In this document: positions 7,345 through 64,000 of the stretch, one piece after another | Layout: each line of letters begins with the position of its first letter | How positions within the stretch are numbered: the first letter of the stretch is position 1 | Source: Candidatus Omnitrophota bacterium | GTDB taxonomy: Bacteria > Omnitrophota > Gorgyraeia > Tantalellales > Tantalellaceae | DNA: 64,000 bases | Assembly (NCBI GenBank): GCA_043812935.1 | Contig: JBDRLO010000024.1 | Span: 9,295 to 73,294 of the forward strand | Direction: 5' to 3' | Translations under genes and position numbers: made by a program | Notes under the pieces: generated by a model | The model's database searches: none | Told to the model about the DNA's origin: nothing | What the model saw: the letters and a program-made list of their open reading frames with translations, nothing else

Positions 7345-7445
7345 CGGTGCTTGGTTGGATATTTATGTTTTTTTCATGGGGAATGATTATTTTTTTGGCG
7401 GTCTTTTGTTTTAAAAGAATTTTCCGAAAAAAAAATGTTGACTAG
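7341..7445 (+). CDS. 34-aa single-TM peptide translationally coupled (ATGA overlap) to the NSS transporter; putative small accessory subunit
   Basis: ATG overlaps transporter TGA stop; MTVLGWIFMFFSWGMIIFLAVFCFKRIFRKKNVD has a hydrophobic core plus basic tail; not in ORF track (<60 aa). Confidence 0.45.
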   Translation: MTVLGWIFMFFSWGMIIFLAVFCFKRIFRKKNVD

Positions 7446-7588
7446 CCGGGATATTTAAATAGTTTTTGCATTCTGCCGGTATCTAATGATATACTATTAA
7501 TAATACTACTATATTTACAATTATACCTAATATATGATTTAGCTTGGTATGCTGGGTAAAGAGGCTAGAGAAAAAAGGAGGCGTCAAG

Positions 7589-7822
7589 ATGGAAAGAGAT
7601 GTTGCGGTTTTTGAAAAAAATAAGTATCAGGATGTGAAAATACGCATATCTGAATATCAGGGGAATGATGTTATAGATGTTAGAATATGGACACAGCCGC
7701 CGCAGGGAGATGAGAAAGTGCCTACGGGAAAAGGTATTAACATAAACGTAAAACTTTACTCAAAACTGAAAGAGGCTGTTGACGAATTGGGCAAAGTGCT
7801 GAAAGAAAATAATCTGGTTTAA
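7589..7822 (+). CDS. PC4/YdbC-like small ssDNA-binding protein
   Basis: about 77 aa; pattern FEKNKYQDVKIRISEYQGNDVIDVRIW...GKGININ typical of bacterial PC4-like (YdbC) proteins; RBS aaggagg before the ATG at 7589. Confidence 0.5.
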   Translation: MERDVAVFEKNKYQDVKIRISEYQGNDVIDVRIWTQPPQGDEKVPTGKGININVKLYSKLKEAVDELGKVLKENNLV

Positions 7823-7885
7823 GGTTTTGCCGTACGGAATTTTTTATTCGCGATGACTGTGAAATAGTTTTTTCAAACGGAGAGT

Positions 7886-8347
7886 ATGCTTATGTCTATT
7901 AATGAGGGGAATGCGCACAAAGAAAAACGTCGTTTTATCAGGCATTTGCTTGTTAATCCGCTTGAATTTCAAATTTTTGAAAATGATAATTTTCAAAAAT
8001 CCGAGACAATTGACGTGAGTGAAGGCGGTCTCATGTTTACTTCCAGAAAAGGTGTGGCTGCGAATGCGATAATAAACCTGCAGGTTCCTTTGTATGAGAA
8101 AATTTTCAAAATTAGAGCAAAAGTAATTCATTCCAAAAAAGATCAAAGTACCGGGCTGTACAGGATAGGTGTTGCGTTTATCAATTATTCCGATGCTTTT
8201 AAAATCAAAATAATTGAACAGATTTATTTGATTGAAGAGTACCGAGTATTACGTTCACTTCAAACGGGAAAAGATCTAAGCCTGCCGGAAGCTTCACGAG
8301 AGTGGATAAAAAGGTATTCTGCCAGATTTGAGAAATTGTATTGGTAA
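7886..8347 (+). CDS. stand-alone PilZ domain protein (c-di-GMP binding)
   Basis: RxxxR (RRFIRH) and DxSxxG (DVSEGGLMF) PilZ motifs. Confidence 0.65.
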   Translation: MLMSINEGNAHKEKRRFIRHLLVNPLEFQIFENDNFQKSETIDVSEGGLMFTSRKGVAANAIINLQVPLYEKIFKIRAKVIHSKKDQSTGLYRIGVAFINYSDAFKIKIIEQIYLIEEYRVLRSLQTGKDLSLPEASREWIKRYSARFEKLYW

Positions 8348-8409
8348 CGAAATAGCCTGTCTGTTTAATCTCTTTTTAGTTTACAAAATGAAGGTATTTA
8401 GGAGGAATC

Positions 8410-8928
8410 ATGGAACGCAAAAATGCGGTAACAATGACTGGAATTCCTTTAACCCTAATGGGAAACGAAATAAAAACCGGGCAGCATGCTCCGGGGGTTA
8501 TTGTCCTGGATGCTGATTTGTCTGAAAAAAATCTTGGAAATTTCAAAAATAAAATAAAATTAATCGCGTCAGTCCCTTCTTTGGATACTCCTGTATGCGA
8601 TCTTCAGATAAAACGGTTTAATGATGAAGCTGTAAGCATGTCTAAAGATATTCAAATTATATTTATAAGCATGGACTTACCATTTGCGCAAAAACGGTTT
8701 TGCCAGGCATATAACATAAAAAATGTGAAAGTTTTTTCTGATCATAGAGACGCAAGTTTTGGAACTAATTACGGTGTTCTTATAAAAGAATTACGTCTTT
8801 TATCAAGAGCGGTTTTTATTGTTGATAAGAATGATGCTGTGCGGTATGTGCAATATGTAAAAGAAATGAGTTTGCCTCCTGATTATGATGATGTCCTGAA
8901 AGCTTTGAAAAATATTATCGTAGAATAA
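8410..8928 (+). CDS. tpx: thiol peroxidase (atypical 2-Cys peroxiredoxin, Tpx family)
   Basis: Tpx-type N-terminus, SVPSLDTPVC peroxidatic Cys context, 172 aa; RBS aggagg. Confidence 0.8.
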   Translation: MERKNAVTMTGIPLTLMGNEIKTGQHAPGVIVLDADLSEKNLGNFKNKIKLIASVPSLDTPVCDLQIKRFNDEAVSMSKDIQIIFISMDLPFAQKRFCQAYNIKNVKVFSDHRDASFGTNYGVLIKELRLLSRAVFIVDKNDAVRYVQYVKEMSLPPDYDDVLKALKNIIVE

Positions 8929-8992
8929 TTTAGAAACACGGGCTTGTTTGAATAACATATAAGTCTATTCAATGTAGCTCAATGTTGAGTAT

Positions 8993-11302
8993 ATGAATTT
9001 ACGAAAGACAATAACATGTTCCATGATACTAACCGGCGCTGCCGCGATGGCATCGCAGATAGTATTTTTACGCGAATTTTTAATTGTTTTTTATGGTAAC
9101 GAAATTTCAATAGGTATTATTCTTGCCTGCTGGTTGTTGTGGGGAGCTTTCGGAAGCTGGTTTTTTGGAAGGTTTTCAGACAGGATAAAAGAAAAAATAT
9201 ATGTGTTTGCCATGTGCCAGATTGCTTTGGCACTTATTCTTCCGGCAACACTTCTTGCTATAAGACTAATAAAACCGGTGATGGGAATTGCGACAGGTGA
9301 AATAATCGGGTACGCTCCGATGTTTGTGTCGGCAGTTCTTATCCTGAGTTTTTCGTGCGCTACAATGGGGTTTATGTTCAGTCTTGCATGCCGTATGTAC
9401 CGGGACAACAGCAATGCTCCTGAAACCGCGCTTGCTCATGTTTATATAATGGAGGCGATTGGCGCATTATTGGGCGGGTTTATTGTCAGCGGTTTTATAA
9501 TTAGGTTCATGACGCCTTTAAGTATTTTGTTTTTATTTTCAGTTCTTAATGTATCCGCGTCAATTGTCTTGCGTAATTCCGCGGGAATTGTTTCACATAG
9601 AAAAATTTTAGATTACACGATAACGGTTGTTTTCTTAATAACGGTTGTGGTAATGGCTTTAGGGGGATTGCGTTTATTGCGGGAATTTTCTTTGGCGCAA
9701 TTGTGGAAAGGGTTTGATGTCCTTGAATCCAGGAATTCGATTTATGGGAACATTACAGTTACAAAAAGAGGGAGGGAAACTTCTTTTTATGAAAATGGCT
9801 TGCATTTATATACGGTTCCGGATGATTTTTCTGCTGAACAGGCTGTTCATTTTGCTCTTCTCGAAAATACCGATATCTCAAGGGTGCTTTTAATCGGCGG
9901 CGGTGTCGGAGGGTTACTAAAAGAGATTTTAAAATATCCGGTTGATAGAGTAGATTACGTGGAATTGGATTCTACTATTATTGATGAAGCCGAAAAATAT
10001 CTTGATATCGCGGATGCTTCGTTTCTGAAAGACGCAAGAGTAGCCATTATAAACGAGGACGGACGTTTTTTTGTAAAAAGGACGGATGAAAAATATGATG
10101 CCGTAATAATTAATCTGGGCGATCCGTACACAATACAGCTTAACAGGTTTTATACGGTCGGTTTTTTTAGAGAATTAAATCGTATACTTTCGGATGATGG
10201 AATAGTGTCATTTTCATTAACGTCGTCCGATAATTATATCGGGGATGAATTAAAAGATTATTTGAGTTCAATATATATCAGTGCGTCAAAAGTTTTTCCC
10301 GATGTTTTGCTTATTCCGGGTGATACGGTTTATTTTTTGCTTTCAAACAAACTGAATATTTTGACCGGAGATCCGGAAATTCTTATGACGCGAATGCGGA
10401 ATTTAGGAATTGAAGCTAAATATGTCAGAGAATATTATTTGTTTGATAAACTATCAAAAGAACGCATGCAATATGTTAAAAATGCGGTCGGACAAGATAC
10501 TGACGCAAAATTGAATGAAGATTTCAGGCCTGTTGCGTATTATTACGCAACTTTATTTTGGGGAACGCATTTTGATTCTCCGTTTTTCAGAAAATTTTTA
10601 AGAGGGGTAAAAGTTAAAAATATATGGGTGGTTACGGCAGTTGTATGTTTTTTGATTATAGTATTTAGCGTTGTTGACAGAAAAAAACATGGAAAACGTA
10701 CGGTTTTATTGTCGGTAATGACGACCGGGTTTGCGGAAATAGTTTTTCAGATTGCGGTGCTTCTGTCTTTTCAGGTGATATATGGGTATGTGTTTTATAA
10801 GTTAGGTATAATTTTAACATTTTTTATGGTTGGCCTGGCTTTTGGGGGATGGATAATTTCGAGACATATGAAACATATACAGAATTACATGAAAGTTTTT
10901 AAGTGGACGCAGGTGTGTATTTGTTTTTATCCATTAATTCTTCCACCCGCCTTTTTGTTGCTTGCCAGGTCGCAGTCAGGGGGTGTTTCTTGGATCGGAG
11001 CAAATATTGTTTTTCCGCTGCTTCCGATTATTGCCGGAACAATAGGCGGCATACAGTTTCCGCTTGCGAATAGGATTTATCTTGAAAACTCGGAAGATAT
11101 AGGAAAAGTAGCTGGATTGAGTTATGGATTAGATCTCATGGGGGCATGTTTCGGGTCGCTTTTGGCTGCCGCGTTTTTAATTCCAATATTAGGTGTTTTT
11201 CAGACTTGTTTGTTAACAGCTATTATAAATGTTTCAGTTCTTACAGCGCTTATGTTAGGCCGAAAGCCGGTTTTTGCGTTGCACGTAACACGCAACACGT
11301 AG
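8993..11302 (+). CDS. polytopic membrane protein with embedded spermidine-synthase-like aminopropyltransferase domain
   Basis: many TM segments at both ends; central SpeE-like methyltransferase-fold motifs (VLLIGGGVGG, VDYVELD, INLGDP); C-terminal 8 aa are encoded by the ACGTG repeat block. Confidence 0.65.
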   Translation: MNLRKTITCSMILTGAAAMASQIVFLREFLIVFYGNEISIGIILACWLLWGAFGSWFFGRFSDRIKEKIYVFAMCQIALALILPATLLAIRLIKPVMGIATGEIIGYAPMFVSAVLILSFSCATMGFMFSLACRMYRDNSNAPETALAHVYIMEAIGALLGGFIVSGFIIRFMTPLSILFLFSVLNVSASIVLRNSAGIVSHRKILDYTITVVFLITVVVMALGGLRLLREFSLAQLWKGFDVLESRNSIYGNITVTKRGRETSFYENGLHLYTVPDDFSAEQAVHFALLENTDISRVLLIGGGVGGLLKEILKYPVDRVDYVELDSTIIDEAEKYLDIADASFLKDARVAIINEDGRFFVKRTDEKYDAVIINLGDPYTIQLNRFYTVGFFRELNRILSDDGIVSFSLTSSDNYIGDELKDYLSSIYISASKVFPDVLLIPGDTVYFLLSNKLNILTGDPEILMTRMRNLGIEAKYVREYYLFDKLSKERMQYVKNAVGQDTDAKLNEDFRPVAYYYATLFWGTHFDSPFFRKFLRGVKVKNIWVVTAVVCFLIIVFSVVDRKKHGKRTVLLSVMTTGFAEIVFQIAVLLSFQVIYGYVFYKLGIILTFFMVGLAFGGWIISRHMKHIQNYMKVFKWTQVCICFYPLILPPAFLLLARSQSGGVSWIGANIVFPLLPIIAGTIGGIQFPLANRIYLENSEDIGKVAGLSYGLDLMGACFGSLLAAAFLIPILGVFQTCLLTAIINVSVLTALMLGRKPVFALHVTRNT

Positions 11303-49400: not shown

Positions 49401-50066
49401 TTACGACAAAGACTTAAGAATTGTTTTCTCTAGGTATTCAAATTTGTTTTCAATATAGTAATGCCGCATTTGTGTGTCCAACAACGAGCCCAGAGCAACT
49501 TTAAAATCATTAGCACTGAACGAAGTAGCTTTTTTAAGGAGTTTTTTTAAATTATCAGTTTTTGTGTTAAGAGTGATTCCTTGTCGTAATAAAAATTCAA
49601 GGTCAAAAAAATCACGTATTGCTTTTCTTTCTAATGCGGCTTCAATTTTATTTTTCATGGCCTGTTCAAGTGTGTGTACGCGCATAATTACCTGTTTTGT
49701 GCTGTATTGTGAAAAAGCGATTCTTTCCTGAAAATCACATTTCATCAAAGCTTTGCGTATTTCAATTTTAAGCCGTCTGGGGTAATTTTTTGAACGGATT
49801 TCAAATAAAAGCGTATAAAATTTTATTTGGGCGTCAGTTATATCATAGTCTGTATTTTTTAAATATTGATGTAATTTTTTAAAATAATCTTTAACAGGCA
49901 TTTTTCGAATAAACCAAAAATCCAAATCGACAGAATACCTGTTTAAATCGTAACATAGGCGCAACATGGTTCCCCCACCGAAGACCAAAGGCTCTAAGAA
50001 CTTAGCGCTTTTCAATTGATTTAAAACTTCAATTTCAAATATTTCGTGTTTTTGCAGAACATTCAT
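49401..50066 (-). CDS. nucleotidyltransferase AbiEii-family toxin (DUF1814)
   Basis: N-terminal GGTMLRLCYDLNRYSVDLDF pattern typical of AbiEii/AbiGii; overlaps the upstream antitoxin-like gene. Confidence 0.7.
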   Translation of the reverse strand: MNVLQKHEIFEIEVLNQLKSAKFLEPLVFGGGTMLRLCYDLNRYSVDLDFWFIRKMPVKDYFKKLHQYLKNTDYDITDAQIKFYTLLFEIRSKNYPRRLKIEIRKALMKCDFQERIAFSQYSTKQVIMRVHTLEQAMKNKIEAALERKAIRDFFDLEFLLRQGITLNTKTDNLKKLLKKATSFSANDFKVALGSLLDTQMRHYYIENKFEYLEKTILKSLS

Positions 50067-50634
50067 TTTTGAAAAGCTCCTGGGTTTTTTTTGGAAAATT
50101 TTTTAATAAAAATTTTAATTTAGTTTGGTTTAATTTATTGAAATCGATAGAAGATATGTCGAAAAAATATCTATTCAACGACATTAAATATAATGCGTCT
50201 AAAAAAGCCTTTTCAGGGGTTGCTATGAAAAAAACCTTATTTTTAATAAAATCAGCATACAGAGCGTGTTGTATTTTAGTATAAGTTAAAACAGTGTTTT
50301 TTATTTCCAGGCGTTTTGTCCTTTTTATTGCGATTGATTCTATAAAGCCCTGCTGGATGAGGCTGGTTATTTCATAAAAAGAAAGTGCAGTCATCAGGGA
50401 TATATATGATGGCACTTGTACAACATTTGCCAGGAGAAATTTCTCCTCAATTTCTAATGTGACCCAACGGTTGTTTAAAATATATAAATTACGTTTTATT
50501 CTAACCAACAAGCCTTGTTTAACGTAGCGATTTGCTTCTACTCGGGCAGATTTTAATTTTGTGCCGAGAGTTTTTGCTATCTCCTCATAGCCGAAATACA
50601 GTTTAGTAATGTGATTTAATTTTGCGTAATTCAT
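50035..50634 (-). CDS. AbiEi-family antitoxin-like transcriptional regulator
   Basis: 199 aa, N-terminal wHTH-like segment, 32-nt overlap with AbiEii gene (typical type IV TA arrangement). Confidence 0.5.
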   Translation of the reverse strand: MNYAKLNHITKLYFGYEEIAKTLGTKLKSARVEANRYVKQGLLVRIKRNLYILNNRWVTLEIEEKFLLANVVQVPSYISLMTALSFYEITSLIQQGFIESIAIKRTKRLEIKNTVLTYTKIQHALYADFIKNKVFFIATPEKAFLDALYLMSLNRYFFDISSIDFNKLNQTKLKFLLKNFPKKTQELFKNECSAKTRNI

Positions 50635-50904
50635 AAGTACACCTAATTAACATATTTGTTAACTAAGTATACTTTACTAAATTTTAAAAGTCAAGGCATA
50701 AGCACAAAAAATTTACTGCAATAAATTGTGAGATGTGTTTATAAAGCATGTTTGTATTTGCAAATAAAGCAAATTATGGCATAATATAACAATTCGGCTA
50801 GTCTTAGCCTTGTTGAGCCTAAACAATAATATAAAGACATCTGCACAACCTCCTAGAAATATGATAAAATAGAAAAAAACAGGAGGATAAATAGGCTACT
50901 ACAA

Positions 50905-51123
50905 TTGGTAAAAACGGTTAAAAGAATTGGTACGTTAAAATGCGTGGCAATATCATTTGTTGTTTTAATTGTATATTATAGTGCGTTTATGTTGCCTTTA
51001 ACACCAATTGGCGCTAGTATCCATAAAAATATTCCGGAGAAAACAGTAATTTTAGATTTACAGCGGCACTACTCTGTCGAAGAGGCGTATAGTTTAATGA
51101 CGCGGGAAGAAGCGATTATTTAA
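50905..51123 (+). CDS. small membrane protein (hypothetical)
   Basis: single TM. Confidence 0.3.
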   Translation: MVKTVKRIGTLKCVAISFVVLIVYYSAFMLPLTPIGASIHKNIPEKTVILDLQRHYSVEEAYSLMTREEAII

Positions 51124-51131
51124 GAAATTTA

Positions 51132-51458
51132 ATGACAATTGATGTGCTCTTCCCTATTCTATATGCTTTCTTTTTTGCTGCAGTAATGTCATATTTGTTT
51201 TCCAGGATCGAGTCGAAAAGCGAATGGGTTAAATTTGTGTATATGATCCCGCTTTTAGCTGCTTTTTCTGATTTTCTGGAAAATATCTTTATTGTGGTAA
51301 TGCTTTTCAATTATCCGAAAGAGGTTTCTCTTGCCGCTGTTTTTGGTGTTTTTTTTACCCGCTTTAAATGGATGTTGTTTGATGCATGTATAGTGGGTAT
51401 AATATTGGAAATCTTTTGGTTAATGTGTGTAAAAATTAAAAGGAGAAAAAATGAATGA
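51132..51458 (+). CDS. small polytopic membrane protein (hypothetical)
   Basis: 3 TM segments. Confidence 0.35.
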   Translation: MTIDVLFPILYAFFFAAVMSYLFSRIESKSEWVKFVYMIPLLAAFSDFLENIFIVVMLFNYPKEVSLAAVFGVFFTRFKWMLFDACIVGIILEIFWLMCVKIKRRKNE

Positions 51459-51966
51459 AAGATTGTATGAGGAAGGTAAAAATGAGTTTTCAAAATTATA
51501 TGTTTTAGTTGAAAATGTTTTATTCATAATTCAATTTATACTTGCTTATTTGGGGATGAAAGTATTCAAAATAAGCAATATTCCCCTTCTTTCTTTGATA
51601 TATATCATTTTTGCGATGGTAATGCTTGTTTTTATCCTGAGAAAGCATTTATGTGCAGGATGCTATTATTACGGTAAATGGTGCCATTGCGGGTGGGGAA
51701 AGCTTTCCTCTCTGATGTATAAGAAGGATACAGGCAATATTGAGCTTGGTGGAAAACTTGCGGGAATGACATGGGGCGTACTTATGGGCGTACCGTTATT
51801 AGTTATGATACTGGCTATAATAATCCGGAAAGTAACTTTTTTTGAAATTGCGCCTATTTTAATTCCATTTATTATTGTTGTAATGATTAATGGTGCTATG
51901 CATGCGGCTGACTGTAAAAAATGTAAGATGAGGTTTGTTTGTCCCGGCAGTGCGGCTAAAAAATAA
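51451..51966 (+). CDS. Cys-rich membrane protein (hypothetical)
   Basis: TM helices plus CAGCYYYGKWCHCGWG and CKKCKMRFVCPG clusters. Confidence 0.4.
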   Translation: MNERLYEEGKNEFSKLYVLVENVLFIIQFILAYLGMKVFKISNIPLLSLIYIIFAMVMLVFILRKHLCAGCYYYGKWCHCGWGKLSSLMYKKDTGNIELGGKLAGMTWGVLMGVPLLVMILAIIIRKVTFFEIAPILIPFIIVVMINGAMHAADCKKCKMRFVCPGSAAKK

Positions 51967-52111: not shown

Positions 52112-55100
52112 TTAGAGTGATGTAAATGCCTGGGCTTCTGCTTTATATTCAACTCGCAATTTGTCATATTCAAAGAAATCAGCATCAGGGAGCAGGAATA
52201 CTATTCGTGATTCCTCATCATAGTTTGCTATGATCGGAGGACGCTTAGTAGGCTGTAGCCCTATTGCCAGTTCTATTGTTAGGGAGAGCATTTTGACCAG
52301 CATAACCTTTTGAATTAATTGCTGGTTCCCGTCCTTACAGAATTTTATTTTTGAAGTGTTAATACTTGCAATAAACGCCCTTTTTTCTTTCGGAGTACTT
52401 TTTAAACCGCTAAACGTAGCCGCATTAATTGTTGTGTCAGAGCCCATGGCAATAATGTCTGACAGTTCTGTCGAGGTTTTTTTTGCCTTTTCCATGATTT
52501 CCGCTGCCAGATTTTCGCTGGTGCTATGTACGAAAAATACGTTATCAAGCCCCATATCCTTTAGCCGCTTTTCAAGGCGGCACATTTCCTTAGGTTTGTT
52601 TTCAGGAGGCAGAAGCTCTTTAAAAAGCGGAAAAAGCAGGTTGTGCTGAAGCTGGTCGTCTTTATTTGGTATCCAGTCTGTTTCAAACGCGACAATGAGG
52701 TTTTTATTTTGTTGTTGCTTAAGCCGAGCAAGTGCTATAAGCGAATTTATAATGCTGGCCGGTTCAAGTTCGTGCAAGTGTTTTGTAATATATTCCATAT
52801 CTTGGTCGATCTTTGCCGGAACTTTTGCAAGGTTTGCCAACTCAGCGAAATGCTCCTTTTTTTCAAGGTCTTTTATGAAGCCCATTGTTTGTAAAGTTTT
52901 TCCGATTTCCTGGCGGATTTCCTCGGAAAGGTCTTTTTTAGTAAGCGGCTGAGGGCGCAAGTCTTGAGTAAAACCGTCAATGCTTTTAAGGAAATTCCGG
53001 ATCGCGTTTGTTTTTTTTACAAGGTTTACGCGGATATTATTTGCCTCAGCTTTTGCTATGTGCAATAGCCGGATAGTTTTATCGTGTGTTTTTTTCGGAT
53101 GAGGTGCCGCGGTTTCAGGCGTTTCTGTAATTTGTAATTGTGTTGACGCGTTTTGCGCATTGTCGCCTAATTTATCTTTTTGAATGGCGGCAATAGCGCC
53201 TTTTGGGATTGGAGGATCAGTTTTTACTGGCAATTTTGTTTCTGGCGTTTCAACCATTCTTGTTTCCGGATCTTCTTCCAAGCTTGTCGTTAAAATATGT
53301 TTGAAAAAACATTTCATTGCAAAGTATAAAGCAGCTAATACCGCAATGATTAATGTTAATTTTAACGTAAAAATGCCCGGGTTATGTTCGGTTTTGAGAC
53401 ATATTTCAAAAAGATTTTGTGCCGACGCCGGGTTTTGAAAGAAATTTATTATTAATGGAACAGTTGGGATTGCCAATAGAAAAGGCAAAAGTGCCCGGAT
53501 ATTCTTTTTATCCGACGATTTATTGCCGGAGATTTTGTTTATTATTGATTTTACGAAAAATTGTATAATGTAAAACGCGATTAAAAGGAAAAATACGTAA
53601 TTAAGATAACTTATAACCGGGGAAATACGTTTTACTGTTGTAAGAAAACCGGAATAGTTTAATAATCCGGCATGTGATTGCCCTTCCCAGAAAGATACTA
53701 TTGAGAAAACAATAGCTGAAATCGTAACTAATAAAGGTAACATTGCTTTCATTGCGTTTAAGAAAGAGTTTTTCTTTCCGTTTGTTTTTAATGTTTCAGT
53801 ATCAGTTATTTTAATAACTTTTGAGTCCGCTACTGTAGAAAAGTTCTCCATTAACGAAACAGTTGTCCCGTTTTGGATTTGTTCCTTGCTCATTTTTTGA
53901 GGGTCCACCAGAAAAATCACGGTGGATTTAATAATAGGCGACATTTTGAAAACGGGCATATTCTTAAGCGCATGCGCGTTCATAATAACCATTTTTATTT
54001 TTCCGGATTGAATTGATTCAAGAAGCTTTGATTCCTGTTTTTTGTAAAGAGAACCGTCAACAAACAAAATATCTTCGTTAAATATATTTTTTTTAATTTG
54101 TGTAGCAAAGGTCATAAAACTTTTTGCAGTTGTAACATCCGGGGTTAAAACAAATTGAAGTGTTTGATTAACGCTGGTTTGGTGTTGTTTTTCTTTTTGC
54201 ATTTCGGGGACAGCGTTGAGTATGGCACTAAACTTGTCTTCAGTGTTTTTTGGAATTGAAGCTGCTCTTGTAAATATCCATATTTTACTATCTGTTTTAT
54301 AAGTGTGTTGTTTGTGTTTAGATTTATTTGACAAAACAAAGTTTTTGGCCAATAAAATAAAAGTCAGGGCTACAAGAAAAGTTGTTGCCAAGAGCCCCCA
54401 AATGGAAGGGCCTTTATTCCCTATTTTTTGGTTGGTTTCTAATATAAAATTAGCCGTTCCATTGCCCCGTAAATAGAAAACAGAAAACATTATGGGGATT
54501 ATATATTTAAGTGATGTCCAGAACGTGAAATCCTGAGTTTTTTTAGCTTCCGTGTTTGTTCTTGAGATGTTTGTATGTAGCTCCTTGAGTTTGGTCAAGG
54601 CGGAAGCTCGCCTGATAAGTATTGCACGTACGAGAATTACAAATACAGCTATGGAAAATACAATTTCGAATCCCACGATTAATTTGTTGAAAAAGGCTAC
54701 TTGGCAAGCTTTTTTTAATTCCTCTGTTAGCATTATTTGGGCAACTGGCTGTGATAATGCCCGGCTGCTTAACATAAAGATTGTTGTAGGTATAAGAAAA
54801 ACAAAAGGAACTATGCTTTTGAGGATATTTATAAGAGCGTTTTTCTTTTTCTGTGCACTGTTGAGAGTTTTTTCATCGGTCATATCCGCTATTGTAAAAT
54901 TGTTTATGTTGGAAAAACTTTTATGAGAATGAAGTGTTGCGGCTTTTTTAAGCTGGCTCCGGGTCATTGTAGGCCCGTCAACAATAAAAACGGCCAAAGA
55001 TTTAATATTAGACGATATTTTACGTTGAGGCATATCGCTGACATGGTCAGCGGCCATAATAACCCATTTTATTTCACCGGATAGAATGGATTGTAGTTTT

Positions 55101-58100
55101 TTTCGGATTTTTTCTTTGGAGGTTTTTGAGTCAATTAATAAAATATGTTTATCGGGCAGCGAGTCTCCATTCGATGTTGCCCTTAATGAGTGGTAAAAAC
55201 GTTTTGCGGTTTCAGAATCAGGGGTTAAAACAAATTGTATAGTTTGCTCAAGAGGAATTTCATATGAGCCTTCGTTTATTAAGCCACTGATAAATGTTTT
55301 AATGCGGGCATATTTATCTTTCGGCCTGTGCAGTACGGGAATTTTTTTCGATGTTTCGATGCTGTATTTTGGTGCGGCAGTAGAAATTTTTTGCGGCAGC
55401 ACCCGTTCTATGGGGGTAGTAATATGTTTTAAATGGGTAACGGTAGCCGGGTCTTTCCCCCCTCTGGTTCGAGGAATTACAGCTTTTGGTTCTTTTCTAT
55501 GCTGCAAATGAATGACTTTATCATTTTGGTCATTCGCGGGAGCAATGCGGATCGTGTTTTGGAGTTTTTTTGCCCTTTGGCAGATTCTCGTGCTAAATAC
55601 TCCTTCTTCTTTAGTTAAGATGGAATCAAATAAAGTTGCGCAATTATAAAACTTTTCAGATTTTATTTTTTGAAGGGTTTCCGCGGCTAATAACCTGGTT
55701 TCAATGTCGTTGGTTGAAACCAGAGCTGCTATTTCCAGCACGAATTCCGCTTTTTCATATTGGGTATAATAAAGATCAGGATATTTTATCCTTCCAAGAG
55801 CTGCTATGCCCAAATTTTTTATTGTGTGATTAGAAGCATTAACATCTGCCAATGCTTTTGTAAACATATCTTCTTCTGTATATTCTCCCAGTGTTTCCAA
55901 AATTTGTTCCGCGTCAGACCTGACATTAAAATTATTTTCCACTAACAACTTGCGTATATGCGGGACAAGCTCTGTTACTTTTTTTTCAAAAAGAAGTTGA
56001 TCGTCCTGAGCGATTATTTTTAAATATGTTTTCAAGGCATATTTGCGCGCGTATTCATTTGTGTTTTTATGGAATAGCGCTTTCTCTAAAATAGTAATTT
56101 TTTCAGAGGAATCGATTTCCAGAAAATCCAATGCTGTTATTGCGCCGTATTGCGAAAATTCAGGCTTTTTTGTAAATAACGTTCTTTTAATTTTAGGGAT
56201 TGCCAATTCGCCGAATTTTGCGAGTTCCCTGCTTGCGGGAAAATTATATTTAAGAGGATCGGATGGCGTTATAGTTATAGAGTGTAATAACTGTCCCAGG
56301 GCAGAAACAGCTTTTTTTCTAATATTCTTGTTGGAAGACGCGGAAAAATTACCCAATTGCTGCCAGGCATATAGTTGTTCTTCAGGAGAAGTATCTTTAT
56401 AGGTTAAATCAGCAAGATATTTTTTTATCTGTAATTGTGCTGAAAATTTCCCCTTTTTTTCCAATTTTATGGTTGTTTTGTTACGTATTTCGATATTTGA
56501 GCTTGATAGTTTTTTTCTGGTAGAGACAATAATGTAAATATATATCACGAATTCTATAAAACAAAAAATGAGAGTTAGTTCTATGAAATTTTTCAGGGTA
56601 AAGTTGTTCCGGTAAAGTCTGATACATTTTGTTAAAAATGGTATTTTTGTTTGATTAATATTTAAAGATTTATCTGCTGCATTTAGTACTACCGGAACAG
56701 CTAAAAGAAAATACAGCAAGCAGGTAATGATTTTTGATTTTTTTAAAGGTGATAATATGTCTTTTAAACTTTCAGGTTTCTTTTGTTTTTCCGCGGCTGC
56801 TGTTGTGTCTTTTTCGGCTTTTATGTTTTGCCGGGGTGTAGAATGGATAATTTTCTTTAATAATGTTTGAGCTTTTAAACAAAGCGTTTCATCAAAAATA
56901 GGGGGTTCGATGCCTATGATATCGCGCAAAAAACCGGCACAATCGAAAAATTCCGCGGCTCCAATATTTAGAAGCGCTTCTACGGCCGATAAGCGGGTTG
57001 CAGGATCATCCTTTGGATGAAGAGCGATTGTTTTTAAAATAGTACATGCTTCGTTATGAAACGTTTCAGAAAGTGGAGTATAGTTTATTTGTCCAAGTGC
57101 AGTAATTCCGGCACTTCGTGTTTCCTGGTCAGGATCTTTTATGTCTGCCAAAGCTTTATCAAAGCTATCTATGGCAGTAAGTATTTTCCAGTTATTCAAA
57201 ATTTGTTTGGCATAATGGCGTACAGGTTTATAACTATTTTTTAACTGTGAACGTATAAACGGCGTCCAATTAGTTATATTTATTTCAGAGGTCGGGGTAC
57301 GTGACATTTGCCAAATCATCCCCAAGGCATAATGCTGAACTTTTTCTTCGAGTTTTACATTACCAGTCAAAAGTATTTTTTCTAAAAATTTGAGTTTCTT
57401 GTTTTCTTCAATTTGCAAAAAGCCCAAAGCAATTATTCCGCTGTATTGCAACAGTTCGTTATTTTTTGTTAACAGTGATCGTGCAATTTCAGGAATTGCT
57501 AAATCACCGAATTTTGATATTTCCCAGGCAACAGGAAAAATGTCCTTAACATTAGAAGATGCTACATTGGTTTTGTATGCTAATATCCGTCCCAGCGCTT
57601 TTACGGCGTATTTTTTTATATCAAGGTCATCAGTTTCACTTAAGTTCGACATGTTACCAAGAGTTTTCCACGCAATTTCTTGTTTTTCTTCAGAAGTATC
57701 CCGAAACTTTAAATCTGAAAGGTATTTTTGTATTTGTAAGATTTTATTTGCGTTTTCTTCGTATAATTTTAATTTTTTTGCGGCTTTTTCGCGTCTTGCG
57801 CTGAGACTGCTTGTAAGGTTAAACACACAAATCACATGTTTCCAAATGAGCCGTGTAACTCCAATAAAAATGCTGACACTTATTAAACCGATTAAAAAAT
57901 GCTTAAGACTAAAATTGAAACGAAGGTTTCTTATAAGAGTAGTAAGGTGCCTTATCTCATTTTGGCTTATTTCAGGATATTTTTTTAGGAATTCGTCAAG
58001 GTTAGGTAGAATTAATACTGCCGTCAGTCCGGATGTCATGATTTCAGAATTCTTTATATATTTTAATAATTCCTTAAATTTACCCCAGCGTTTATTCTTA

Positions 58101-58771
58101 AAGGCTGTTTTTGTATCAGAAATAATGTTTTTTTCAGGGTTTTGAATTAATAATTTTTCTTTAGGTGGTACTGCCGTTTTAGTTAAACTTTTCGGTGCTT
58201 TATCGGCCACTGGTGCGTCTGTAAAAAGTTTTATGACGTATTTATTGGATTCAAAAAGTGTTTCGCCCTGCAATTCTTGCGCGGAAGGAGATGCTTTTTT
58301 CGCAACCAATAGTAAGGATTCAATATTATTCGGGTTATATGGAAGGGCAAGTATGTCATTCTTTTGTATATATTTTGGGGCTTTTCTTGTGCTGTTTGGA
58401 TTCTTTAGTTTTTGTAGTAAGTATTCCAGTGTAAAAATATATTCTAACGTTACATTTGCCTGTTTTTCATATGCGCACGTAAGGCTTGTGTCCAGAGCCG
58501 AAATTGGAAGCTGGTTATCATATAGGTATTTTGCGATATCCAGGATTATGTTTTGTAACACAGCATCCGCGGCAATTGACTCACGGAATGTTTCCCCGTT
58601 TTGAGTGAGCATTTTTTCCTGGAAAATGCCTTGACCGGAAATTGTAGGTGCGGTAACAGGTTTTAAAAAAGTTAAAGAAGGATTACTCCATGAAATATCC
58701 GAAGAAAGAAGAGTACATATTAAAAAAAGTGAAATGATTTTAAAGGTAAAATAACTTTTTATTTCATTCAT
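52112..58771 (-). CDS. giant (2219 aa) polytopic membrane protein with two HEAT/PBS-lyase-like repeat blocks and three copies of an unassigned alpha/beta domain
   Basis: uninterrupted 6.66-kb ORF with RBS; signal/TM at N-terminus, several TM clusters, HEAT-like units (KALGRIL, IIALGFL, ITALGQI, AVEALLNIG), internal tandem duplication, domain paralogous to the C-termini of the proteins at 60514 and 61864. Confidence 0.7.
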   Translation of the reverse strand: MNEIKSYFTFKIISLFLICTLLSSDISWSNPSLTFLKPVTAPTISGQGIFQEKMLTQNGETFRESIAADAVLQNIILDIAKYLYDNQLPISALDTSLTCAYEKQANVTLEYIFTLEYLLQKLKNPNSTRKAPKYIQKNDILALPYNPNNIESLLLVAKKASPSAQELQGETLFESNKYVIKLFTDAPVADKAPKSLTKTAVPPKEKLLIQNPEKNIISDTKTAFKNKRWGKFKELLKYIKNSEIMTSGLTAVLILPNLDEFLKKYPEISQNEIRHLTTLIRNLRFNFSLKHFLIGLISVSIFIGVTRLIWKHVICVFNLTSSLSARREKAAKKLKLYEENANKILQIQKYLSDLKFRDTSEEKQEIAWKTLGNMSNLSETDDLDIKKYAVKALGRILAYKTNVASSNVKDIFPVAWEISKFGDLAIPEIARSLLTKNNELLQYSGIIALGFLQIEENKKLKFLEKILLTGNVKLEEKVQHYALGMIWQMSRTPTSEINITNWTPFIRSQLKNSYKPVRHYAKQILNNWKILTAIDSFDKALADIKDPDQETRSAGITALGQINYTPLSETFHNEACTILKTIALHPKDDPATRLSAVEALLNIGAAEFFDCAGFLRDIIGIEPPIFDETLCLKAQTLLKKIIHSTPRQNIKAEKDTTAAAEKQKKPESLKDILSPLKKSKIITCLLYFLLAVPVVLNAADKSLNINQTKIPFLTKCIRLYRNNFTLKNFIELTLIFCFIEFVIYIYIIVSTRKKLSSSNIEIRNKTTIKLEKKGKFSAQLQIKKYLADLTYKDTSPEEQLYAWQQLGNFSASSNKNIRKKAVSALGQLLHSITITPSDPLKYNFPASRELAKFGELAIPKIKRTLFTKKPEFSQYGAITALDFLEIDSSEKITILEKALFHKNTNEYARKYALKTYLKIIAQDDQLLFEKKVTELVPHIRKLLVENNFNVRSDAEQILETLGEYTEEDMFTKALADVNASNHTIKNLGIAALGRIKYPDLYYTQYEKAEFVLEIAALVSTNDIETRLLAAETLQKIKSEKFYNCATLFDSILTKEEGVFSTRICQRAKKLQNTIRIAPANDQNDKVIHLQHRKEPKAVIPRTRGGKDPATVTHLKHITTPIERVLPQKISTAAPKYSIETSKKIPVLHRPKDKYARIKTFISGLINEGSYEIPLEQTIQFVLTPDSETAKRFYHSLRATSNGDSLPDKHILLIDSKTSKEKIRKKLQSILSGEIKWVIMAADHVSDMPQRKISSNIKSLAVFIVDGPTMTRSQLKKAATLHSHKSFSNINNFTIADMTDEKTLNSAQKKKNALINILKSIVPFVFLIPTTIFMLSSRALSQPVAQIMLTEELKKACQVAFFNKLIVGFEIVFSIAVFVILVRAILIRRASALTKLKELHTNISRTNTEAKKTQDFTFWTSLKYIIPIMFSVFYLRGNGTANFILETNQKIGNKGPSIWGLLATTFLVALTFILLAKNFVLSNKSKHKQHTYKTDSKIWIFTRAASIPKNTEDKFSAILNAVPEMQKEKQHQTSVNQTLQFVLTPDVTTAKSFMTFATQIKKNIFNEDILFVDGSLYKKQESKLLESIQSGKIKMVIMNAHALKNMPVFKMSPIIKSTVIFLVDPQKMSKEQIQNGTTVSLMENFSTVADSKVIKITDTETLKTNGKKNSFLNAMKAMLPLLVTISAIVFSIVSFWEGQSHAGLLNYSGFLTTVKRISPVISYLNYVFFLLIAFYIIQFFVKSIINKISGNKSSDKKNIRALLPFLLAIPTVPLIINFFQNPASAQNLFEICLKTEHNPGIFTLKLTLIIAVLAALYFAMKCFFKHILTTSLEEDPETRMVETPETKLPVKTDPPIPKGAIAAIQKDKLGDNAQNASTQLQITETPETAAPHPKKTHDKTIRLLHIAKAEANNIRVNLVKKTNAIRNFLKSIDGFTQDLRPQPLTKKDLSEEIRQEIGKTLQTMGFIKDLEKKEHFAELANLAKVPAKIDQDMEYITKHLHELEPASIINSLIALARLKQQQNKNLIVAFETDWIPNKDDQLQHNLLFPLFKELLPPENKPKEMCRLEKRLKDMGLDNVFFVHSTSENLAAEIMEKAKKTSTELSDIIAMGSDTTINAATFSGLKSTPKEKRAFIASINTSKIKFCKDGNQQLIQKVMLVKMLSLTIELAIGLQPTKRPPIIANYDEESRIVFLLPDADFFEYDKLRVEYKAEAQAFTSL

Positions 58772-60513: not shown

Positions 60514-61686
60514 TTATGCGCTTATATCCACATGGAACAGGTTATCAATGAATTCGCGTATGGTTTCTGAAATGCGCAGGCGTGAGATGTTTTCAAGCGC
60601 GGTGAATACCTGTTTCAAACGGCTCAATGTGTTTTCGGAACATTCAATTGCTATGATATGCGGAGATTTTCCGGAATCTGTATAACGTTTTAAAAGGTTT
60701 GCGGCGGCTATCATTGGTATAATACGGTTAAGCCTTTTCCCTTCCTCGTCTTTTGTCAGGATATTTTTACCAATTATGACATAACTGGGGGTGCCTGGTT
60801 CCCCGTTGATTTGTAAAGATTTAATCAGCTGATTTGTTCCGGTATCGGATTCAGGCGAAACAATGGAAACTGCAAATGGTAAAATTTCCGGGATTTTTTC
60901 TTCTTTCTTTTTGATTTTTAAAGCTGTATTTATTGCGCCGACAATATCTTCTGTGCCGTCCGGAATTGTAATATCTTTTGGATCCAATATAATGACGTTT
61001 TCAAGCAGAATAAGTTTTGATGCTGTATTTAACGGAAGAGGCGCGTTTGGATTATTAATAATCGAAACATAAAAATCGTTATGCGCAAATTTTTCTATTT
61101 CCGGAAGCATGGTATTTATATCAATGCAGGGGAGTCGACTGTCTATAACAATTGCTTTCGGAATTTTGGGCATTAAGGTAAGAACTCTGTTTATTGTTTG
61201 ACCCGTCCTAATATCCTCTTGTTCTGCCGCAATTTTCCTGTGTTTAAGAGCAATATTCGCGAATGATACATTGGGATTGTTTCTTAAATAATTGATGAAT
61301 CGTGTGTGAAAGGCAAGAAATGTGTCAATACCTTTGTCTTTTTTGTGCATTGTGCCGGCTGTATGAGCATCAATGGAAACGCCGATAGCCTCATTGTAAC
61401 TTTCAAGCCAAGGTTCCGTATCATTCGGGTTAACGGAGGGTTGTTCTTTGGGTAACTCCGGCTGTGTATTTGAAAAAACATCGGAATTATATGTATCAAA
61501 AATTGATTCGAGAATATCATGCCGCTTTTCGTCAGGAAGTGCTTTTTCAAGTATTTCCCGCATCTCACTACGGGTTCTATTTTTTAATTTTCCTAAGGTG
61601 TCTCTAGAAAAACCGCCCAGATATGGATTGACAAGGTAGGGATATATGTTCGCCAAAGCGACGAGATCGGAATGTTTATTTGTCAA
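60514..61686 (-). CDS. protein with C-terminal alpha/beta domain paralogous to giant-protein domain (unknown function)
   Basis: C-terminal ~240 aa align with C-terminus of 61864 protein (IIAIECSEN / VVAVECSEN, LLKRY / ILKRY) and with the three giant-protein copies. Confidence 0.55.
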   Translation of the reverse strand: MTNKHSDLVALANIYPYLVNPYLGGFSRDTLGKLKNRTRSEMREILEKALPDEKRHDILESIFDTYNSDVFSNTQPELPKEQPSVNPNDTEPWLESYNEAIGVSIDAHTAGTMHKKDKGIDTFLAFHTRFINYLRNNPNVSFANIALKHRKIAAEQEDIRTGQTINRVLTLMPKIPKAIVIDSRLPCIDINTMLPEIEKFAHNDFYVSIINNPNAPLPLNTASKLILLENVIILDPKDITIPDGTEDIVGAINTALKIKKKEEKIPEILPFAVSIVSPESDTGTNQLIKSLQINGEPGTPSYVIIGKNILTKDEEGKRLNRIIPMIAAANLLKRYTDSGKSPHIIAIECSENTLSRLKQVFTALENISRLRISETIREFIDNLFHVDISA

Positions 61687-61863
61687 GTCCTGTATCTGGG
61701 CGGTTTTTCTGCCGTTTCCAGCATGTTCTCTGTTGTTTTACCTCCCTGCATATTAAAAAATATATGCGGTCGTTTATCGGAAACTTTATGTTCAAAATCT
61801 TCTTTATTTCTAACAACAATTTACTTACAATAAAAAAAACCATCAAACTAAAAAACTAAACGA

Positions 61864-64000
61864 TTATAATGATCTGGTGGTTTGAATGATGGCGCTGATC
61901 TTTTCCGTGATTTCGTCGTTGATGTTTAGGCGTGTGATCACGGTTAAAATGATATCCATAAGGTTGCGAATCTTTTGCAGTATGTTTTCTGAGCACTCCA
62001 CTGCTACCACATTTGTCTGTTTTTCTTTGGATAGGTATCTTTTTAGGATACTTGTAAGCGCCATAACCGGAAGCATATTCAAGATGTGTTCGGTTTCAGC
62101 GTCTTTTTTGTCCACAACACTCCTGCCGGCAATAATAAAATTGGCTTTTTCTGCCGCAGGGCCCTCAAGGTGTGACAGAAATCCTTCCGCCATGGATTCG
62201 GTCGTGACGACCGACATTGCCGCAAACGGTAAATCATCGATCCTGAGTTTCGCAAGCAGAAAGTCTCTTGCCTGGCGGACAATGGGTCGCGCGGGGTCAA
62301 TACCCGTTAAGTGTGTAATATTGTCCGGCAATATGAATTCACCTATCGCTTTTTGCATACGGTTTTCCTGATCGATCAGGCACATATATACAGTTGGGTT
62401 TGCTTCTGCCAATCGTTCAACCGCAGGCAGTATACGGGTAAGGACATCTTCTGGTACGTCTCTCAAGTCATATACAATTGCCTGATTCTTCGGTATAAAG
62501 TCTTTGGTCAGCAGTATGGATAGGTTCTTGGCGAGTTCTTCCTCTACTGTTTCCGCCATCGCGGTATTTTCAGTATTATTCAGAAGTTGTTTTCGTATTA
62601 TATTCTTCAGTTCATACGGAAGTAATCCTATGCTTTCGAAAAAGTCTATATCTTTATTTAAAAGCTTTAATTGAAATGTTTTCTCTTCTGTCTCTGCCAT
62701 TTCTTTACCGTTGTATTCCTGCTTTCCCTCTAATGCCATTTGTAGATAATAACTTAAACCCTCTGTTCCAAAGATATCCTTATTATTTTTGTAAAGCGGA
62801 GTCTCAAATAAATCATTTAATTCAGGATGATTAACACTGAAGTAATTTTTTATTTGCTCTATTTTTTGAGGACCCAAATCATTATGTATCGAATGAATAA
62901 ATTCGTGGATAAATGGTCCAACATCTGTACTGATATAAGCACGTTGGTATATTGAATCTATGTCACAAAACGCTCCGCCCTCTTGACTATATATAACATA
63001 TTGTTGCGATATGTTGGCATCAAAACCCTTTTCAAGCATAAATAAAAGAAATTTCTTAATAACAGGCTGGGCAGTAAGACTTTTTTTAAATTCTTTCCAA
63101 TCTGTTTCGTTTTCTATCCATGAACTACAAATAGTAGGCTGAAAGTCAGCTTGCGCAGGAACCATTTCAGAAGTTTTGGATTCTATAAAAGTTGCAATTT
63201 TATCAGAATACTCATTCGGTAATTGATAATATGGTGTGCGAATACCATTAAGTGCAGTTTCTCCGAAGACAACCTCTTCCTCTACTTTCATTGCAATGTT
63301 CTTAATCTCATCATTTGAGTAGAAAACCATAAAATATACCTCTCCTCCATCAGCAAGATTACCACTATACACGAGTATACGGCTATACGCACTATGTCGG
63401 TATTCATCTAAATATTCAGCTTTAAAGAAGTTAACATGGTTAAAAAACTTTTCAATAGATTGAATGCTTAATTCACCATCTGGTATTCCTGTTATCCATT
63501 TTCGTAAAATAGTTGCAGCGGATTCGTTGTAACGCAATTTATTTAAAAGCTTTTCTTCACGGCTATCGTCAATGTCTGTGTCTTTTTCTTCTGTTTCAAT
63601 CAAAAGATCAGGATCATAATTATTCGCGAACGCTCCTATCCGCGCATCTATTGTGTTGTTGACGGGAGTTTCTCTTACAAGTTCTGTTGTAAGCGTTATC
63701 ATAGCATTTTTAAGGCGGTCTTGCCTCATTCTGCTTATTGAGACAGAGTCCAGTTGCGCTAAATACGGGTATTTTTTCACAAAAGCTGTTCGCCTTACGT
63801 ATTTTACAATATCATTTATGTTGTTTGCTAAATCCTGCGGAGACATGTCAATTAGAAATGTGGAGATTCCTGCTTTCGCAGGAATAACAGGTACTGGTTT
63901 CTTAACAATCGTAAATTCTATATCCGGATAATCCGAAGACAGTTGTTTCAGTGCATCTTTGTTAATTTCGACAATACCGACGATTGGTCGAGACGGTTTT
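61864..64000 (-). CDS. HExxH-motif protein with C-terminal paralogous alpha/beta domain; reading frame remains open to the window edge (5'-partial)
   Basis: HEFIHSIH motif in N-terminal region; in-frame sense codons continue upstream of the annotated Met at 63846 with no stop to position 64000 and no RBS before that Met. Confidence 0.55.
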   Translation of the reverse strand, partial: KPSRPIVGIVEINKDALKQLSSDYPDIEFTIVKKPVPVIPAKAGISTFLIDMSPQDLANNINDIVKYVRRTAFVKKYPYLAQLDSVSISRMRQDRLKNAMITLTTELVRETPVNNTIDARIGAFANNYDPDLLIETEEKDTDIDDSREEKLLNKLRYNESAATILRKWITGIPDGELSIQSIEKFFNHVNFFKAEYLDEYRHSAYSRILVYSGNLADGGEVYFMVFYSNDEIKNIAMKVEEEVVFGETALNGIRTPYYQLPNEYSDKIATFIESKTSEMVPAQADFQPTICSSWIENETDWKEFKKSLTAQPVIKKFLLFMLEKGFDANISQQYVIYSQEGGAFCDIDSIYQRAYISTDVGPFIHEFIHSIHNDLGPQKIEQIKNYFSVNHPELNDLFETPLYKNNKDIFGTEGLSYYLQMALEGKQEYNGKEMAETEEKTFQLKLLNKDIDFFESIGLLPYELKNIIRKQLLNNTENTAMAETVEEELAKNLSILLTKDFIPKNQAIVYDLRDVPEDVLTRILPAVERLAEANPTVYMCLIDQENRMQKAIGEFILPDNITHLTGIDPARPIVRQARDFLLAKLRIDDLPFAAMSVVTTESMAEGFLSHLEGPAAEKANFIIAGRSVVDKKDAETEHILNMLPVMALTSILKRYLSKEKQTNVVAVECSENILQKIRNLMDIILTVITRLNINDEITEKISAIIQTTRSL

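Follow-up and report, generated by a model that had tools for sequence, protein, structure and literature searches.

How did a single gene of an Omnitrophota bacterium come to encode 2219 amino acids (aa), and what does such a protein do at the membrane? The question is raised by an open reading frame (ORF) that occupies positions 52112..58771, on the minus strand, of a 64,000-nucleotide stretch of DNA (hereafter, the window) from Candidatus Omnitrophota bacterium (GenBank assembly GCA_043812935.1, contig JBDRLO010000024.1, positions 9,295 to 73,294 of the forward strand). The locus bears on why and how Omnitrophota make membrane-associated proteins of extreme length. Our analysis favors, at a probability of roughly 70%, a multi-pass inner-membrane docking scaffold that grew by duplication and that is encoded by one gene with three parts, namely, a conserved N-terminal domain (head), a variable middle (cargo), and a conserved C-terminal domain (tail).

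Internal duplications and the syntenic ortholog

The ORF comprises 2219 codons plus a stop, starts with ATG, and is preceded ~10 nt upstream by a AGGGAAGG-like ribosome-binding site; the next largest ORF in the window encodes 942 aa. At ~36% GC, the probability of 2219 stop-free codons is ~1e-70, and an NCBI protein from a metagenome-assembled genome (MAG) is identical to the ORF product (P0001, 'MAG: HEAT repeat domain-containing protein [Candidatus Omnitrophota bacterium]'). Both results bear out an earlier reading of the letters alone (hereafter, the sequence-only reading), which had singled out an uninterrupted 6.66-kb ORF in low-GC DNA as unexpected by chance. We conclude that the 2219 codons form one real gene and that its host is an Omnitrophota bacterium. 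A scan for promoters and terminators gave no signal above shuffled expectation.

A hydropathy scan of the product identified an N-terminal hydrophobic helix (residues 8-26) and ~11 further transmembrane (TM) candidates, i.e., ~12 hydrophobic helices in total. Pfam placed one family above threshold, HEAT_2 (PF13646; residues 504-600, 53.3 bits versus a gathering cut-off of 27.7); at E<=1, HEAT-type families were the only ones returned, and NCBIfam gave no match. This agrees with the N-terminal signal, TM, and HEAT layout that the sequence-only reading had proposed. More specifically, the head (residues 1-190; 58202..58771, minus strand, as are all features of the gene) consists of the signal-peptide-like helix (58694-58750), a low-confidence linker, and an alpha+beta domain. 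It is followed by module A1 (residues 205-678; 56738..58159), which contains a degenerate first helix at ~243-258, a TM helix at 292-310, and a HEAT block, and by its paralog A2 (residues 639-1123; 55403..56857), which contains a TM hairpin (681-699 / 732-750) and a second HEAT block, assigned via homology to the first. The degenerate helix of A1 aligns with a genuine TM helix of A2. Module B1 (residues 1135-1347; 54731..55369) comprises an orphan soluble domain (~1135-1315) and the first helix of TM cluster 1 (residues 1316-1475; 54347..54826), in which the helices lie at 1316-1334, 1368-1386, and 1457-1475, with a weak one at 1418-1434. Its paralog B2 (residues 1488-1704; 53660..54310) leads into TM cluster 2 (residues 1676-1818; 53318..53746), made up of the hairpins 1676-1694 / 1726-1744 and 1760-1778 / 1800-1818. 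The tail (residues 1897-2219; 52115..53083) is a helical bundle to ~2021 and then an alpha/beta domain with a conserved 'ETDWIP' motif, and it reaches the C-terminus.

Both duplications are significant by masked self-BLAST, in which segments of the protein were compared with the rest of it; plain self-BLAST gave the identity match only. The two A modules share 31-46% identity per segment, with E down to 5e-33, and the two B modules ~33% identity, with E down to 4e-23. Global alignment gave 35.6% identity over 483 columns for module A and 28.8% for module B. The sequence-only reading had named formal self-alignment as the check on its internal repeats, and the repeats are recovered by it; the lead-in motifs that it quoted lie at residues 346-373 and 779-808, and its QT[IL]QFVLTPD..TAK motif at residues 1176-1190 and 1536-1550. 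At the DNA level, Tandem Repeats Finder (TRF) did not find tandem arrays, and near-identical repeats are absent from the gene. What B1 and B2 still share is limited to short in-register patches, one of 56 nt at 79% identity and another of 43 nt at 81%, spaced by 1074-1080 nt. Since the paralogs retain only ~29-36% protein identity, the duplications appear to be old.

Module B may adopt an alpha/beta fold, as suggested by its alternating hydrophobic/amphipathic pattern. No homolog of it beyond the 2219-aa protein was found by exhaustive phmmer, by a profile search of PDB, in Pfam at E<=1, or in a pattern scan of Joint Genome Institute (JGI) metagenomes. A B1/B2 profile likewise gave no homolog in a collection of 5.8 billion proteins, a weak negative in that the word-indexed search missed even the parent protein P0001. 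The sequence-only reading had counted a third copy of this domain at the C-terminus, for which we found no support: module B and the tail show no BLAST match at E<=0.01, a comparison of the B1/B2 and tail profiles by hhalign gave a probability of 0.4%, and hmmsearch with the tail hidden Markov model (HMM) gave no match within residues 1-1890. The idea, formed by eye, of one domain shared by module B, the tail, and the neighboring ORFs of 390 and 660 aa (o390 and o660) was dropped, as hmmsearch and hhalign revealed no relation.

Insight into the origin of the length comes from one relative. When residues 1121-2219 were compared exhaustively by phmmer with 1.84 billion representative proteins, 238 matched at E<=1e-3 (161 of them at E<=1e-10), and in the best 150 of these 238 the best match is confined to the C-terminal ~230-330 residues, with a single exception that matches beyond the tail. 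This protein (P0003) has 1152 aa and is encoded by the Omnitrophota MAG GCA_043811395.1 (contig JBDRNE010000016.1, locus L033, gene 7208-10666). The gene order Lgt, 167-aa gene, head-tail gene, Fic, MFS, 151-aa gene, radical SAM, FeoB, FeoA, HTH gene is common to both loci, and the flanking genes share 71-91% protein identity. The head-tail proteins are much less alike: residues 1-704 of the ortholog are 42% identical to residues 1-695 of the 2219-aa protein, and residues 651-1152 are 52% identical to residues 1736-2219, the last hairpin being common to both. Given the 71-91% identity of the neighbors, 42-52% indicates that the head-tail protein evolves fast. A head search in JGI metagenomes yielded no further close orthologs.

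The ortholog consists of a head, one A module (35% identical to A2), one hairpin, and a tail. Thus, it shares the head, an A module, the last hairpin, and the tail with the 2219-aa protein and has no counterpart of residues 696-1735 (53567..56686). These ~1040 extra residues, whose edges lie inside a TM hairpin, hold A2, B1, TM cluster 1, B2, and the first hairpin of TM cluster 2. The extra segment has a GC content of 0.352 versus 0.368 in the rest of the gene, similar GC at third codon positions (GC3), and well-correlated codon usage (r=0.94). Gain by internal duplication for A2 and B1/B2 is a more economical explanation than loss in the ortholog, and the two-fold length difference between syntenic orthologs suggests a concrete growth mechanism for long genes.

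The head-cargo-tail family and its genomic setting

The tail, which is ~300 aa long, defines a family of at least 238 clusters at 50% identity; the head of the family combines a hydrophobic N-terminal helix with a conserved domain of ~150 aa. Among the best 150 matches, the tail lies within 10 aa of the C-terminus in 149, and 88 of the 104 proteins of at least 800 aa also have the head at their start; the others look like fragments ending at contig ends. Besides the 2219-aa protein, the 88 head-plus-tail proteins range from 729 to 5572 aa (median, ~1650), and no longer protein occurs among the best 150 of the 238 tail matches. In the 2219-aa protein itself, the head HMM matches residues 1-181 (E 6.7e-52) and the tail HMM ends 3 aa before the C-terminus (E 1.5e-92). 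The ORF contains exactly one head and one tail, and the rest of the window adds no other. A plan of conserved ends with a variable middle was suggested by a 2583-aa relative with ROK, DUF218, and HEAT domains (P0002), whose similarity to the 2219-aa protein is limited to residues 1-186 and the final ~320 residues of the latter.

The cargo was surveyed with Pfam in 30 members, and half of them carry HEAT_2 or HEAT_PBS (HEAT_2 in 15, HEAT_PBS in 11). Other members of this census host DUF218, radical SAM plus B12-binding, guanylate kinase, glycogen phosphorylase, NDK, CofD, UDPGP, epimerase, ROK, and APH domains. Neither Pfam (also at E<=1) nor NCBIfam has a model for the head, the tail, or module B, and database entries that match in the tail only are named 'hypothetical protein' and lack a Pfam domain. 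In addition, inspection by eye of six relatives (P0006, P0008, P0010, P0028, P0031, and P0032) revealed another membrane module, repeated several times per protein, in which TM helices precede a conserved 'DGYRH.AF ... HE.F.SHF.GM' motif; it is missing from the 2219-aa protein.

To place the family taxonomically, we scanned the GTDB species representatives with a tail peptide pattern derived from eight closer sequences. All 30 loci found, a lower bound obtained with one pattern, belong to Omnitrophota MAGs, including Ca. Makaraimicrobium, and seven of them are labeled 'uncultured Planctomycetia'. Several of the scanned genomes contain two family copies. In four loci (L021, L022, L024, and L028), two head-cargo-tail genes stand in tandem on the same strand, and in L022 and L028 only ~100-220 bp separate the tail of the first gene from the head of the next. 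Collectively, this is apparently an unnamed, phylum-restricted family in which a constant head and tail bracket highly variable cargo.

An AlphaFold2 model of the tail from a 29-sequence alignment (predicted local distance difference test [pLDDT], 85.7; predicted template modeling score [pTM], 0.85) displays an extended helical bundle that leads into a beta-alpha-beta domain. The top Foldseek matches were NG domains of the signal recognition particle (SRP), at weak scores (probability, 0.66; TM-score, ~0.2; E 3e-3). The order of parts is the same as in Ffh/FtsY, where a helical N bundle precedes an alpha/beta G domain. Unlike those domains, the tail lacks a Walker A motif (P-loop G1, GxxGxGK[ST]), which is absent from the 2219-aa protein and occurs in two of 150 tails, a chance level. 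Moreover, the tail sequence profile matched none of the PDB sequences. The tail is therefore not supported as an SRP/FtsY NG-domain GTPase, given the missing G1 motif, the lack of a significant superposition, and the absent profile match; a lead to HAD-like phosphatases for its alpha/beta domain, considered on the DxDx[TV] motif and fold, gained no clear support. No close solved structure was found for the head or the tail. The weak fold matches, together with the missing Walker A motif and PDB profile match, indicate that both ends are unmodeled families with generic folds. The 'ETDWIP' motif, which follows the first strand of the tail, suggests a putative ligand or metal site.

Several features of the surrounding DNA deserve mention. 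On the contig of P0002 (L001, 1-23752), long genes of ~16,000, 2583, 1842, and 2305 aa run on the same strand. The 16-kaa and 1842-aa proteins have a common C-terminal region of ~100 aa (35% identity) that differs from the family tail, and the last motif of this region (..hF.YhP.A.P..Y[DE]KEI.....AA*) resembles the extreme C-terminus of that tail. A second conserved C-terminal domain type also exists in ORFs beside the long gene and in L033. There, an ORF of 390 aa (60514-61686) corresponds to the last 390 residues (68% identity) of a TPR neighbor of at least 1791 aa in L033 (1-5377), of which a 39-residue remnant persists in another frame (61704-61820). The ORF of 660 aa (61864-63846) has in common only a paralogous C-terminal domain of ~200-290 aa, at 27-29% identity. 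The truncation of the 390-aa ORF relative to the TPR neighbor in L033 indicates that gene length is unstable at the adjoining locus too. On the other side of the long gene, the interval before Fic contains an AbiEi/AbiEii toxin-antitoxin pair on the minus strand (49401-50634) and, on the plus strand, two short ORFs with strongly hydrophobic products (51132-51458 and 51451-51966); since Fic directly follows the ortholog in L033, the block 49401-51966 looks like an insertion. GC skew is strongly positive (+0.2 to +0.3) from 1 to 47 kb, a region of almost exclusively plus-strand genes, falls to ~+0.1 at the switch to minus-strand genes, and is negative in the final 2 kb of the window; replication strand bias or a nearby skew switch may underlie this pattern.

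Membrane topology and competing explanations

A1 is separated from A2 by two TM helices, B1 from B2 by four if the weak helix is included, and four lie before the tail; these even numbers would put all the cargo and the tail on one side of the membrane. Lysine and arginine residues within 15 aa of the TM ends number 37 on the cargo side and 19 on the loop side. Together with the ATP-, S-adenosylmethionine (SAM)-, and nucleotide-sugar-dependent cargo of relatives, this favors a cytoplasmic cargo side. Most likely, the cargo modules and the tail are cytoplasmic and the head is the sole extracytoplasmic part. No catalytic domain was recognized in the 2219-aa protein. We postulate that its HEAT solenoids offer surfaces on which partner proteins dock and are thereby brought to the membrane, that the gene approximately doubled by old tandem duplications of units made of a soluble module plus a TM hairpin, and that the hairpins would keep the cargo modules and the tail on the same membrane face.

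Several points weigh against this scaffold. The TM calls come from a hydropathy scan alone, and the weak helix 1418-1434 is needed to place B1 and B2 on one side. Neither an informative homolog nor an informative fold match is available for module B, the head, or the tail. A2 is equally far from the A module of the ortholog (35%) and from A1 (36%), and the direction of gain or loss is not proven. Finally, about one third of the head-plus-tail relatives have no TM helix between head and tail, which makes the topology of the family ambiguous; helix parity across the family was assessed with a crude hydropathy counter, of which only this zero-TM class is robust. If the N-terminal helix is a Sec signal, the 'cytoplasmic-type' enzymes of such relatives would be exported. 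Either the N-terminal helix is no export signal in them or whole enzyme-bearing proteins are exported.

The same relatives lend some weight to a surface-exposed protein, in which the Sec signal would be cleaved and helix 243-258 would span the membrane, so that the head, HEAT, and B modules and the tail all lie outside, anchored by hairpins, and serve as a small Archaeovorin-like adhesin or docking device in host or prey contact. In the zero-TM relatives both ends must be on the same side; the head has the n/h/c layout of a signal peptide with a conserved SWA|YP-type site, helix 243-258 has a true TM helix as its counterpart in the alignment with A2, and HEAT repeats occur in predicted extracellular regions of Archaeovorins (doi 10.1101/2023.11.21.568195). 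We consider this reading rather unlikely, given that positive residues are richer on the cargo side, that the NDK, guanylate kinase, ROK kinase, radical SAM, and UDPGP domains of relatives need cytoplasmic cofactors, and that West-Roberts et al. themselves call such predicted localizations doubtful (doi 10.1101/2023.11.21.568195). The hairpins could also be read as the processing sites of a polyprotein, their first helices acting as internal signal peptides at which signal peptidase frees separate membrane-anchored pieces. These helices do have K-rich n-regions and AxA-like sites (LNA|AD, ALS|QP, and ASA|QN), and proteolytic processing of giant proteins has been proposed by West-Roberts et al. 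(doi 10.1101/2023.11.21.568195). However, the motif is the sole basis for such cleavage here, and uncleaved signal-anchor hairpins are common, which makes the polyprotein improbable.

Two further explanations concern the origin of the ORF. The sequence-only reading offered duplication or fusion, and its modular protein grown by internal tandem duplication stands, whereas an origin of the ORF from several smaller paralogs fused together finds little room in our data. The tandem family genes described above would provide the raw material for fusion, and yet the ORF has one head and one tail with no internal remnants of either, internal tails are essentially absent from the family, modules A and B match each other only (i.e., A1 with A2 and B1 with B2), and the positional ortholog is a single 1152-aa gene with the same two ends. 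We regard fusion as very improbable. Even less credence is due to an assembly artefact, in which a chimeric join or an expanded repeat would have made the long ORF. The sequence does derive from a MAG; however, assembly errors give near-identical copies, and the copies here share only ~29-36% protein identity and almost no DNA identity, so that their age argues against expansion during assembly. Furthermore, the extra segment stays in frame for 1040 codons, its GC, GC3, and codon usage are as in the rest of the gene, and both gene ends are validated by the syntenic ortholog.

Beyond the duplication-grown scaffold, we advance a tentative and decidedly speculative proposal, namely, that the head and tail are matched functional ends, acting either as docking partners that join tandem-encoded members or as signals of a dedicated insertion or sorting pathway. 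If the former is true, members would join head to tail as noncovalent 'virtual giant proteins' on the membrane, of which the covalent 10-150-kaa giants would be the fused extreme. If the latter is true, the two ends would be recognized by a route dedicated to very long Omnitrophota proteins. With matched ends, the 1152- and 2219-aa pair would represent the elementary growth step of giant genes, i.e., duplication of a domain plus a TM hairpin. Head and tail are tractable targets, and they bear on the disputed location of the enzymes inside or outside the cell.

Relation to known systems

The logic of a conserved N-terminal signal and an extreme C-terminal domain around a variable middle recalls secreted proteins. 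C-terminal domain (CTD) proteins of the type IX secretion system (T9SS) and autotransporters combine an N-terminal signal, a variable passenger, and a conserved C-terminal domain. Unlike these, the tail is modeled as a helical bundle plus an alpha/beta sandwich, not as a beta-sandwich CTD or a beta-barrel; the cargo of relatives consists of cytoplasmic-type enzymes, and we noticed no accompanying secretion genes in the window. Closer at hand are HEAT-repeat proteins (PF13646 HEAT_2 and PBS-lyase-type HEAT), to which module A belongs above the Pfam threshold. The 2219-aa protein differs from other members in that its HEAT blocks sit between TM hairpins of a polytopic protein and are bracketed by the head and tail.

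The nearest comparison is with the giant proteins of the same phylum, to which the sequence-only reading had alluded in linking the ORF to giant genes of uncultivated lineages. The link is right as to the host, which is an Omnitrophota bacterium, and overstated as to size. Archaeovorins are giants of at least 30,000 aa (West-Roberts et al. 2023; doi 10.1101/2023.11.21.568195), and the catalogue of Nielsen & Lui (2026) covers Omnitrophota proteins of at least 10,000 aa (doi 10.64898/2026.06.07.730766); published Omnitrophota giants span 10,000-147,000 aa. The 2219-aa protein is 5- to 60-fold shorter and falls below the Archaeovorin length of at least 30,000 aa. It also lacks the glycosyltransferase, methyltransferase, glycoside hydrolase, peptidase, NUDIX, and SecA-DEAD-like domains of Archaeovorins (Pfam at E<=1 and NCBIfam).

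The long, TM-rich, HEAT-rich, and internally repetitive nature of Omnitrophota proteins is already known from these two preprints, and 2219 aa is modest there. A text search of both returned no mention of the head/tail pair. Relative to the searchable literature, Pfam, and NCBIfam, a head/tail bracket that defines a large family of mid-sized proteins appears to be new; so, relative to the searchable literature, does a syntenic ortholog pair with a two-fold length change via duplication of a module plus a hairpin.

In construction, the resemblance is considerable. Among long Omnitrophota proteins, 94% bear TM helices or signal peptides, HEAT domains provide scaffolding, and repeated domains are common (doi 10.64898/2026.06.07.730766); Archaeovorins contain HEAT repeats more often than any other domain, and whether such proteins face inside or outside is an acknowledged ambiguity (doi 10.1101/2023.11.21.568195). 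The 2219-aa protein, with ~12 helices and HEAT_2, shows the numerous TM helices and HEAT repeats by which Archaeovorins are also defined. Like the giants, it comes from Omnitrophota, combines a signal peptide with many TM helices between soluble domains, has HEAT_2 as the dominant scaffold, and carries repeated domains in one polypeptide, the repeats being old and diverged and without nucleotide tandems. It may therefore be a small version of the construction used in very long Omnitrophota proteins.

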